DNA from: a virus
Strand: one strand, 5' to 3'
Virus record (IMG/VR): IMGVR_UViG_3300046516_001541
Location: 1 to 64,000 of that record
Length of the DNA stretch: 64,000 bases
Shown: positions 59,311 to 61,493 of the stretch, one piece after another
Layout of the letters: each line of letters starts with the position of its first letter
Position numbering within the stretch: position 1 is the stretch's first letter
Notes under the pieces: model-generated
Told to the model about the DNA's origin: nothing
The model's database searches: none
What the model saw: the letters and a program-made list of their open reading frames with translations, nothing else
Position numbers and translations under genes: made by a program

Positions 59311-59739
59311 ATGGCCAATCAGAAAATCAGTACTCTACCAGCCGCGGCGGCTTTGGTTGGCACCGAGCTTCTCGAGCTGGTGCAAGGAGGCACCAACGTC
59401 AAATCGACAGTAGGCGCCATTGCTACCGAGATTGCGACTCCAACCTATTCGGCCGCAGCTCTCACCGGTACGGATAACGTAGTCCTGCCAGGCTCGGGCG
59501 ACTATGTTATTTCGGTGGATACCACGGCCGGTCCGATCACGTATACGGGATTTGTCGCGCAGCGAGACGGCCAGAAGCTTACGTTCAATTGCGCGGGCGC
59601 TAACAATCTGAATTTCTCACCTCGGACAACGTCCGCTGCTGGCAATCAGATGCAGGCATCAGGAATTTCGTCCATTGTCGAATTCGACAGCATCACATGG
59701 CAATATTCTCAAGGCGTAGGCAAATGGCTACAAATCTGA
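59311..59739 (+). CDS. Fibre adaptor protein
   Basis: N-terminal KISTLPAA...GTELL..VQGG...K motif typical of fibre N-termini. Confidence 0.65.
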   Translation: MANQKISTLPAAAALVGTELLELVQGGTNVKSTVGAIATEIATPTYSAAALTGTDNVVLPGSGDYVISVDTTAGPITYTGFVAQRDGQKLTFNCAGANNLNFSPRTTSAAGNQMQASGISSIVEFDSITWQYSQGVGKWLQI

Positions 59740-61493
59740 AAACTCTTCTTGCGAGTCTCGTTTTCTCGCTGATCGCCACATCAGCACTGGCCCAACAATA
59801 CAACCGGTTCGGGCCCGTCACGGGAGTCCTGAAAGGGAACGTCAGCTCGCCACAGACGTCCGCAGCGACGTCCGCCGACATCATTGGCCTCTGGACCGGG
59901 ACATGCTCAGCATCCACCTTTCTGCGTGGTGACGGGGCTTGTGCAGCTGGAGGCGTGCCCTCTGGCGCGGCCAATTTGGTATATGCGACGCCAAACGGAT
60001 CTTCTGGCAATGCCACTCTGAGGGCGCTCCTAGGAGCGGACCTGCCACCGATTAATTTGGCATCGACCGCGAATGGTGGCGTGCTGAGCACGAGCATCCT
60101 ACTCGGTACCAATGGCGGCACGAGCAACGGATTCTTTTCCATCACGGGGCCGGCGACCTCGCTGAAGACATTCACGTTCCCGAATGCTTCCGCGACTGTC
60201 CTCACTTCAAATACGCCAGTGACAGTTGCGCAAGGGGGCACGGGCGTCGCCACCTTGACAGCCAATAGCGTCCTGTTGGGTGAAGGGACCAGCAACGTTT
60301 CATCCGTGGCGCTGGGTGCGGATACGGTTCTGCGTGGCACCGCTTCGGCGGATCCAATAGCTGCGGCGGTCAATAATTGCGGCGATGCCACGCACGCGCT
60401 GTCATACAACACCACAACGCATGCTTTCGGTTGTCAGGCCATAACGTCCGGGGGCACAGGCACAGTCACCAGTGTCGCGGCCGGCACGGGTATTACCGCA
60501 AGCCCTAGTCCCATCGTAGGCAGCGGTACGATATCACTGGATCTAACCGCTACTAACACGTGGACTGGTCGGCAAACATTTAGCGGGGGATCCGGGGCGC
60601 CCGGCTATGTCACGGGTGCTGCGGCTGCAAGCGCATTATTTGAATTCGCTGGCAATGCTCAGACAGCGGGCACTACGTCCCTAGCCGTAGGACAGGACAC
60701 TAGTGGCGACGCGGCAATTATCCAACGGGCCAATCGTCAGTTATATCTCAGCACGAATGGCTCGCAACGAGTCACTGTCTCTGGTACGGGACGTATTAAC
60801 TTTCTTGCGCAGACATCGACTGGCGCGGCCGGCGCATCTTTCAATGGGCTCAACAACGCTGACACGGTGCTAGTGCAGAGTGGAACTACGACATCCCAAG
60901 GATTCGGACTGCGCGTACAGGCTGGCACCAACGCATCTGACTATTCGTTTCTAATAAATAATGCGAGTAACGGAACTACTCTATTTGAAGTGTTTGGCGA
61001 TGGCGGAACAGTCGTGGGTTCCCCGACCGGTGGATCACAGGGCGTTGGCACAGTCAACGCGACCGGCCTTTTCGTCAATGGTGCAGCTACTACCACTCAA
61101 ACATCAGGAACGTTCACTGGAACGCTGACTGGGATGACAGGAAGTGTCACTGCAACATTTAAATGGCGGAAAATAGGCGGTTCGCTAGTCACATTATTTC
61201 TGGCTACCGGAACGGACCTCACAGGAACATCAAATACTACGGCAATGACCCTAACGGGTTTGCCGGCGGCGATTCAGCCCGCAATCCAAGTTTGCTTTTA
61301 CAATGCCTCTGTCGAAGATAACGGTGGCAGTGAAGCGGCGAATAATTGCATTGCGGCCAGCGGCAGCACTGTCACATTCACGCCAGCCCAGGTCAATGCC
61401 GCTCCGGGAAAAGTAGTGGGTGGCGTCTTCACCGCCTCTGGCACCAAGGGCCTAACCGGTCCGTGGCAGATGATTTACGATCTCGGAAACTGA
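59724..61493 (+). CDS. Tail fibre-like protein with Sec signal peptide
   Basis: MATNLKTLLASLVFSLIATSALA; FLRGDG, VAQGGTG and GTVTSV..G.G shaft motifs; 6 Cys. Confidence 0.8.
   Translation: MATNLKTLLASLVFSLIATSALAQQYNRFGPVTGVLKGNVSSPQTSAATSADIIGLWTGTCSASTFLRGDGACAAGGVPSGAANLVYATPNGSSGNATLRALLGADLPPINLASTANGGVLSTSILLGTNGGTSNGFFSITGPATSLKTFTFPNASATVLTSNTPVTVAQGGTGVATLTANSVLLGEGTSNVSSVALGADTVLRGTASADPIAAAVNNCGDATHALSYNTTTHAFGCQAITSGGTGTVTSVAAGTGITASPSPIVGSGTISLDLTATNTWTGRQTFSGGSGAPGYVTGAAAASALFEFAGNAQTAGTTSLAVGQDTSGDAAIIQRANRQLYLSTNGSQRVTVSGTGRINFLAQTSTGAAGASFNGLNNADTVLVQSGTTTSQGFGLRVQAGTNASDYSFLINNASNGTTLFEVFGDGGTVVGSPTGGSQGVGTVNATGLFVNGAATTTQTSGTFTGTLTGMTGSVTATFKWRKIGGSLVTLFLATGTDLTGTSNTTAMTLTGLPAAIQPAIQVCFYNASVEDNGGSEAANNCIAASGSTVTFTPAQVNAAPGKVVGGVFTASGTKGLTGPWQMIYDLGN

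Follow-up and report, generated by a model that had tools for sequence, protein, structure and literature searches.

A signal-bearing fibre gene in the tail module

The DNA analysed here (hereafter, the window) comprises the first 64 kb of the 80-kb IMG/VR virus record IMGVR_UViG_3300046516_001541, and its tail module contains a fibre gene at 59724-61493 (fibre 59724) that opens with a predicted Sec signal peptide. Gene order in this module runs from baseplate J (55913) and a baseplate/PASTA protein (57832) through a small adaptor gene, whose stop overlaps the start of fibre 59724 by 16 nucleotides, to fibre 59724 itself, a conventional tail fibre, its assembly protein and an endolysin. The window encodes portal, protease, major head protein, sheath, tube, tape measure and baseplate W and J homologues, as well as the endolysin and spanins, and the phage is a contractile-tailed one with a Gram-negative host. 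Its major head protein shares 43-50% identity with its counterparts in Bordetella phage PHB04 and Pseudomonas phages Dolphis and Touem01; the last of these carries, after its baseplate genes, a 563-residue ordinary fibre without a signal and lacks the adaptor-fibre cassette.

The open reading frame (ORF) of fibre 59724 extends from 59697 to 61493, and the ATG at 59724 is preceded by AAGG/TAGG. From this start, the N-terminus consists of M-A-T-N-L-K, a 17-residue uncharged hydrophobic stretch and A-L-A/Q-Q (a slash marks a predicted cut), reading MATNLKTLLASLVFSLIATSALA up to the cut and QQYNRFGPVTGVLKGN beyond it. The n-region is positively charged (K6 in MATNLK), the best 10-residue Kyte-Doolittle mean is 2.69 and small residues occupy positions -3 and -1. 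The protein is positive under a strict home-made signal rule, which demands an uncharged 10-residue window whose hydropathy averages 2.0 or more, an n-region with a charge of at least +1 overall and small residues at -3/-1. A23 and Q24 are invariant in an alignment of close homologues (A2). Furthermore, contigs from four rhizosphere runs belonging to different studies cover 59300-60598 with zero differing letters, so neither the start region of the fibre nor its junction with the adaptor is an assembly artefact.

Mature fibre 59724 contains six cysteines in three apparent pairs (C61-C73, C219-C237 and C524-C542, spaced 12, 18 and 18 residues apart), which probably form disulfides. Its C-terminal domain is predicted to fold like viral receptor-binding heads: Foldseek matches of the modelled residues 459-589 in the PDB include Zamilon Zav_19 (E 1.7e-6), reovirus sigma1 (2e-4) and the receptor-binding heads of lactococcal phages TP901-1 and p2 (~1e-3), and the domain also matches predicted phage fibres in a viral structure library. 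Searches of Pfam, PHROGs and NCBIfam returned zero matches for fibre 59724, for the adaptor or for the second fibre described below, Pfam found no Peptidase_S74 (S74) domain in fibre 59724 itself, and a PDB sequence search gave no match for either fibre.

A sequence-only reading of the window had placed a Sec-type signal on this gene, counted six cysteines in three pairs, and set the protein apart from a conventional fibre at 61518 with its own chaperone, no signal and one cysteine. All of these points were borne out, the conventional fibre matching Gp53-like_C and being followed by a phrog_188 homologue.

Other starts and other types of N-terminus were considered and rejected. The stored gene call P0001 (478 residues) starts at TTG 60057, that is, at residue 112, and thereby loses the signal, the conserved mature N-terminus and the Cys-loop module; residues 24-111 are, however, conserved as protein in hundreds of homologues whose gene calls begin at the upstream start, and the region upstream of this TTG is therefore coding. 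The alternative ATG at 59697 has no Shine-Dalgarno sequence, and the extension that it would add (59697-59723) is missing in relatives. A Tat signal was set aside, since an SRRRQ motif arises only from that longer start (MAIFSRRRQ) and the n-regions of homologues are of MKK- or MIKR-type without RR. A lipoprotein is equally inconsistent with the sequence, which has no lipobox: the c-region TSALA/QQ lacks cysteine, and the first cysteine is residue 61. The possibility that the gene is a decoy copy of the ordinary fibre was also discarded, the head being unrelated to the tip of the 61518 fibre.

A second signal-bearing fibre in the same genome

The same genome encodes another fibre with these properties at 29783-31654 (fibre 29783). 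It starts with MRKLSFLASLLLVVAAAQA, directly followed by AQQ, and it presents R2 and K3 in MRKLSF, a best 10-residue Kyte-Doolittle mean of 2.92 and a predicted cut at A-Q-A/A (or A-A-A/Q). As the sequence-only reading had noticed, the two fibres have a segment in common: BLASTP aligns residues 23-98 of fibre 59724 with residues 50-131 of fibre 29783 at 42% identity (E 5e-7), around the core GVLKGN...LWTG.C....LRGDG.C. This shared Cys-loop module is 40 residues long and lies at 29996-30112 in fibre 29783.

After its signal, fibre 29783 reads AQQPVATGTSGNDHSGDPLRTAFTKLNANDAELY, in which a docking motif, AQQPV...GDPLRTAFTKLNANDAELY, can be recognised. The same motif occurs without a signal at the extreme N-terminus of a protein of Bradyrhizobium phage ppBeUSDA76-1 (MAQQVVNVGAVANDGTGDALRTAFQKLNANDTELY) and of the baseplate protein of Rhizobium phage RHph_I46, and the gp9-type fibre connectors of T4-like cyanophages likewise carry this N-terminal motif without a signal. 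Because a cut at one of two adjacent AxA sites would recreate that N-terminus, the signal of fibre 29783 looks as if it had been added to a normal virion-docking domain.

Two small paralogous genes lie directly upstream, the second of which gives a weak match to PDB 8cjz_h, annotated as 'Spike Base Protein' (E 1.1e-3); our literature search found no paper citing PDB 8CJZ. The label of head fibre for fibre 29783 is a plausible guess, made from gene position and this weak match of the preceding gene. The coordinates of these and of the preceding features are collected in Table 1.

Table 1. Coordinates in the window of the adaptor-fibre locus, its neighbours and the second signal-bearing fibre
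Feature	Coordinates	Strand	Basis or match
Adaptor gene, 142 aa, no signal, one Cys; N-terminal KISTLPAA...VQGG docking motif; conserved C-terminal beta domain of ~90 aa	59311..59739	+	
Predicted Sec (signal peptidase I) signal peptide of fibre 59724, residues 1-23, MATNLKTLLASLVFSLIATSALA, predicted cut before Q24	59724..59792	+	Sequence features; strict rule positive
Mature fibre 59724, residues 24-589 plus stop; conserved N-terminus, shaft, putative receptor-binding head	59793..61493	+	Homologue comparison
Cys-loop module GVLKGN...LWTGTC-x11-C (C61-C73), common to ORF 29783	59823..59942	+	BLASTP, regex scan, profile search
Second Cys loop C219-x17-C237 (NNCGDATHALSYNTTTHAFGCQ), most conserved shaft element	60378..60434	+	C219 and C237 nearly invariant in A2
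C-terminal head, residues 459-589, predicted beta-sandwich with third Cys loop C524-C542	61098..61490	+	AlphaFold2 (AF2) predicted local distance difference test (pLDDT) >90; Foldseek
Conventional tail fibre, 228 aa, no signal, one Cys	61518..62204	+	Pfam Gp53-like_C E 3.4e-13; tail-fibre PHROGs
Tail-fibre assembly protein for the conventional fibre	62206..62583	+	phrog_188 E 2.4e-11
Pair of small paralogous genes (100 and 131 aa) immediately before fibre 29783; candidate spike-base/adaptor proteins	29070..29772	+	phrog_12296
Signal-bearing fibre 29783, 623 aa, 12 Cys in six pairs; predicted signal residues 1-19 (or 1-17)	29783..31654	+	

Signal and cysteine pairs are conserved across a fibre family of uncultured phages

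To place both fibres in a family context, we collected homologues and applied the strict rule to them. The search with fibre 59724 found 315 homologues, with N-termini that look like signals on inspection; signals and cysteines were counted on 119 of these and S74 domains in 120 listed. The rule was positive in 107/119 homologues of fibre 59724 and in 100/118 homologues of fibre 29783. Furthermore, a profile of the Cys-loop module, built on 49 positions that include no signal residues, was searched against 1.84 billion representatives and retrieved 1172 protein clusters at E <=1e-3 (591 at 1e-10), often with 2-8 copies of the module per protein. Signals were called in 119 of the 126 new matches of this profile and in 57 of the 60 module-bearing ORFs on IMG/VR viral contigs, and in every set most of the N-termini that fail the rule still resemble signals, with unusual starts. 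Within the window, the rule was applied to 31 proteins of the structural region, among which only the two fibres, a borderline 233-residue protein and the i-spanin were positive.

The signals themselves diverge (32% mean identity) with their character kept, and the mature N-terminus is 51-59% identical. The predicted cut falls 1-3 residues before the conserved mature motif in 148/156 proteins, with Gln at +1 in 75/156. This divergence is illustrated by a close relative of the phage, L062 (baseplate J 74% and tape measure 77% identical), which carries the same adaptor-fibre cassette. Its fibre and fibre 59724 are 58% identical over the first 240 mature residues and have unrelated C-halves, and their signals do not align at all. 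As judged from these alignments, the apparent exchange of the C-half follows the mosaic pattern usual for host-range proteins.

The cysteines follow a pairwise pattern. Their number in the mature part is even in 101/119 homologues, and consecutive cysteines are mostly 12 or 18 residues apart, with 18 as the second peak. Among 539 distinct instances of the module, 501 have both cysteines, 34 have neither (mostly truncated matches) and only 4 have a single one. On viral contigs, fibres with a generic central module only and no signal contain 0-3 cysteines, compared to mostly 4-34 in signal-bearing fibres with the generic central module, two of which have only 3.

The sequence-only reading had proposed, from two instances in one genome, that such fibres represent a system rather than an accident, and had looked to a module profile and to the co-occurrence of signals with even cysteine counts for confirmation. 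The signal calls in homologues and in new profile matches agree with that proposal, as do the even counts, the joint retention or loss of the module cysteines and the low counts of signal-less fibres. The outcome that the sequence-only reading had named as contrary, module homologues that for the most part have no signal, was looked for and did not appear. By these family statistics, signal-bearing fibres with paired cysteines do exist as a class, encoded next to ordinary fibres. Their export, their disulfides and their presence on the virion are what we infer from sequence.

Regarding distribution, the module was found on 65 IMG/VR contigs of 5-230 kb, and the nearest protein-atlas clusters of one homologue are viral. 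In a scan of genome contigs, the sole matches, spread over many phyla, were to the generic central module of the fibre. A sample of 801 bacterial genomes (400 and 401 from the classes of two proteobacterial metagenome-assembled genomes, with the phage itself as positive control) yielded no instance of the Cys-loop module, which is a weak negative. A tblastn search of 50,697 GenBank phage records gave no match for fibre 59724 and one partial match for the module (E 0.06). Signal-bearing, Cys-paired fibres are a trait of uncultured phages, which would explain why nothing has been written on them.

Some members of the family also show a distinctive C-terminus. In 13 of 18 S74-ending homologues, the sequence continues beyond S74 into a hydrophobic helix and an Arg/Lys tail (P0004, P0006, P0010, P0014, P0028, P0050, P0054, P0064, P0070, P0071, P0077, P0098 and P0110), with S74 confirmed by Pfam in two. 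An N-terminal signal combined with a C-terminal stop-transfer helix and basic tail would correspond to an N-out, type I topology with the body of the fibre in the periplasm. For these proteins, the combination therefore predicts a membrane-anchored precursor from which the fibre would be released by S74 self-cleavage.

The adaptor gene is coupled to signal-bearing fibre genes

In the alignment of the adaptor family (A4), the N-domain is variable and the C-domain (~90 residues) is conserved. An adaptor-type gene ends where the fibre gene starts in ~28 of the 64 IMG/VR loci found via the module. When viral contigs were searched with the adaptor alone, the next gene overlapped the adaptor stop and started with a signal in 16/16 loci, eight of them on contigs not retrieved before. 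The signal-bearing fibres in all 16 loci then carry Y/F-x-x-F/Y-G-P-x-x-G, and four of them lack the Cys module.

One locus, L003, is informative as to where the adaptor might bind. The N-domains of its adaptor and of the ordinary tail fibre next to it are 45% identical (E 5e-27), and since the two are homologous the adaptor should dock where fibres dock. L003-L006 and ~25 further IMG/VR loci belong to ~50-kb phages with the order gp53-like ordinary fibre, 240-residue adaptor and signal-bearing fibre; in this group the first 140 residues are common to the adaptor and the ordinary fibre.

The C-domain of the adaptor was modelled by AF2 with a pLDDT of ~90. Its structural matches are headed by 6o38_A (VIA Z 10.3) and a fragment of E. 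coli StcE (VIA Z 8.8), neither of which is identified as a phage adaptor domain, followed by an Acinetobacter phage tailspike (VIA Z 7.8), a Pseudomonas phage capsid spike (VIA Z 7.5), residues 67-175 of CBA120 TSP4 (VIA Z 7.2) and a Klebsiella phage KP1 baseplate chain (VIA Z 6.4), after which the next match drops to VIA Z 3.5; the best Foldseek E value is only 1e-3. With moderate scores, the predicted fold would fit a socket offered to another fibre.

A possible two-compartment route of fibre assembly

The reading that we favour, tentatively and with not quite half of our confidence, is that the adaptor and fibre 59724 form a two-gene cassette encoding a split auxiliary host-recognition fibre, which would be exported by Sec, disulfide-bonded and joined to the particle around lysis. 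The signal-less, 142-residue adaptor would be made in the cytoplasm and join the baseplate via its N-terminal docking motif. Fibre 59724 would be made as a precursor with a Sec signal and cross the inner membrane unfolded, signal peptidase I cutting before Q24; it would then trimerise in the periplasm, where its three short Cys loops would be oxidised to disulfides. Its mature N-terminus, QQYNRFGPVTGVLKGN, would plug into the conserved C-domain of the adaptor, and its C-terminal head would bind a host surface receptor. Since the cytoplasmic and periplasmic pools would meet only when holin, endolysin and spanins break the envelope, the fibre would join the finished particle at or after lysis. 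Fibre 29783 would be handled likewise elsewhere on the virion. Of this scheme, the analysis shows the signal features and their conservation in the family, the pairing pattern of the cysteines, the predicted fold of the head and the conserved pairing of adaptor and fibre genes; we infer that the fibre is exported, cleaved and disulfide-bonded, that it binds the adaptor and that it attaches at lysis. Extended to the family, it is possible, and we suggest it with reserve, that many uncultured tailed phages are built in two compartments, with head, tail and a small adaptor assembled in the cytoplasm and Sec-sent, periplasm-oxidised distal fibres docking on that adaptor at lysis, and that some lineages hold these fibres by a self-cutting S74-plus-helix anchor.

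Several considerations weigh against this reading. A periplasmic fibre that meets a cytoplasm-built particle only at lysis looks inefficient and has no described precedent, and infectivity would not require an exported protein on the virion, since the phage also encodes an ordinary fibre together with a chaperone for it. No cultured GenBank phage carries the module, hence there is no virion proteome to compare. The signal calls come from a home-made rule, not from a trained predictor or experiment, and the signal and cysteine counts use related sequences, which overstates their independence. AF2 modelled the shaft poorly (mean pLDDT 67), and the Cys pairs are read from sequence; likewise, the fold matches of the adaptor are moderate, and Z values of 7-8 possibly reflect a common fold.

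We therefore considered other roles for such a protein. It might be exported and never reach the virion, acting instead in the periplasm or envelope of the infected cell, where it could mask or bind receptor material and so spare progeny from being lost on debris, exclude other phages or stick cells together, with the adaptor-like gene serving another role. The signal, cysteine and topology evidence fits this explanation equally well, and phages are known to encode exported envelope proteins beside receptor-binding genes, such as T5 Llp and lambda Lom. A complete ordinary fibre and chaperone are present in the phage, and the mosaic adhesive trimer (MAT) fibres of Bdellovibrio are signal-bearing, phage-like fibres that work on a cell surface (PMC10769870). 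We nevertheless regard it as somewhat less likely, because the partner gene encodes an N-domain of virion-docking type, homologous to the one in the ordinary fibre, with the coupling seen at every one of the 16 adaptor-found loci, and because the predicted mature N-terminus of fibre 29783 coincides with a canonical virion-docking motif. The head is not a copy of the ordinary tip, as a decoy would require, there is no lipobox, and the module resides on the 65 viral contigs and was not found in the 801 sampled bacterial genomes.

Two further explanations concern the N-terminus itself. An uncleaved signal-anchor, tethering the fibre to the periplasmic face of the inner membrane permanently or until lysis, appears improbable: a hydrophobic N-terminus alone cannot separate a cleaved signal from an anchor, and some relatives are clearly membrane-anchored at their other end (S74 and membrane helix), but the core is short (~10-17 residues), small residues at -3/-1 are found family-wide, and the position of the mature motif just past the site in 148/156 proteins, with Gln at +1 in 75/156, speaks for cleavage. 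That the protein is not exported at all, its N-terminus serving for transient membrane parking, trimerisation or as a baseplate plug, or its true start lying downstream at TTG 60057 (478 residues), is very improbable. To our knowledge, all known tailed-phage fibres assemble in the cytoplasm, and the stored gene call P0001 does start at residue 112, which would favour this explanation; against it, residues 24-111 are conserved as protein and hence coding, and the n-h-c pattern, the paired cysteines and the basic-tailed stop-transfer anchors at the C-terminus are not easily reconciled with a cytoplasmic protein.

Relationship to known systems

Textbook assembly of tailed phages is wholly cytoplasmic, and our literature search found no paper that describes a Sec signal on a virion fibre of a tailed phage. 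Virion proteins that use Sec are known from filamentous (Ff) phages, whose g3p is a disulfide-bonded receptor-binding protein; T5 Llp and lambda Lom also use Sec. Ff particles assemble at the membrane, and Llp and Lom are small non-fibre proteins. In contrast to Ff, the phage studied here is tailed, with a cytoplasmic head and tail, and fibre 59724, unlike Llp, has no lipobox.

The closest described system to fibre 59724 is that of the MAT fibres of Bdellovibrio bacteriovorus, phage-like trimers with a signal peptide, a conserved N-terminal domain and swapped adhesive tips, some of which end in S74 (Caulton et al. 2024, PMC10769870). The likeness lies in the layout of a signal followed by a conserved N-domain. 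MAT genes reside on the chromosome of a predatory bacterium, which displays the fibres on its own surface, whereas fibres 59724 and 29783 are encoded within the structural operons of a tailed phage and follow an adaptor gene and candidate adaptor genes, respectively. Signal-bearing genes of function unknown that expose an N-terminal Gln have also been reported in Porphyromonas phages, without being named as tail parts (Matrishin et al. 2023).

With respect to the adaptor, T4 gp9 and gp10, the N-domains of CBA120 TSP4 and the baseplate of Klebsiella phage KP1 provide examples of a small, baseplate-bound beta domain that carries a separate distal fibre, as the adaptor would here; for the adaptor C-domain, Foldseek gave no more than weak matches to T4 gp9 and to a T4 baseplate chain. 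In branched or multi-part phage fibres all parts are cytoplasmic and signal-less, whereas here the distal part alone has a Sec signal and paired cysteines. Many homologues of fibre 59724 end in S74, like the K1F endosialidase and the L-shaped fibre of T5; in 13/18 of them, a membrane helix and basic tail come after S74. Fibre 59724 itself differs from S74 fibres in ending in a predicted beta-sandwich head. Reovirus sigma1 and the TP901-1 and p2 heads place a similar beta-sandwich on a fibre; the head of fibre 59724 has no sequence similarity to them and has a Cys loop, and the comparison speaks to fold, not to receptor.

A large, conserved class of signal-bearing, Cys-paired fibre genes with adaptors would imply that the adsorption apparatus of many soil phages matures partly outside the cytoplasm. 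If so, tailed phages would have a new assembly route, yielding disulfide-hardened fibres, and the view of lysis timing relative to particle completion would change. Host-range engineering and the prediction of virion proteins would both be affected as well: folding of such fibres would depend on an oxidising compartment, and signal-bearing genes are usually dismissed as non-structural. Moreover, gene callers can clip such genes (here by 111 residues), which may hide the class in automatic annotation.

Occurrence, possible host and other genes of the window

DNA of the phage is present in root and rhizosphere metagenomes, and no RNA dataset was listed as holding the stretch. A shaft repeat of fibre 29783 (residues 129-195), which contains a C-x9-C loop, shares 85% identity with a hypothetical, signal-bearing protein (P0189) of Bradyrhizobium sp. 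STM 3557, and this match, together with the root and rhizosphere occurrence, gives a hint of a Bradyrhizobium-like host. The host is probably an alphaproteobacterium associated with roots.

Fibre 29783 is followed by a gene for a 511-residue protein (31658-33193) with nine cysteines and no signal, whose N-terminus gives weak matches to pectate-lyase and exopolysaccharide (EPS)-depolymerase PHROGs; its product may be a depolymerase of the same appendage. In the tail module, the 490-residue baseplate protein at 57832-59304 contains a PASTA domain at residues 87-149 (Pfam E 5.7e-12), a name that links it to penicillin-binding proteins and Ser/Thr kinases. Its counterpart in L062 has 801 residues, with three LLE-type repeats at its end, just before the adaptor gene.

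Finally, three ORFs of the early region have signal-like or membrane-anchor N-termini and gave zero Pfam matches. They encode a 244-residue, cysteine-containing protein (5638-6372, + strand) and proteins of 110 (428-760, - strand) and 161 residues (17410-17895, - strand), which may be envelope-directed accessory proteins.

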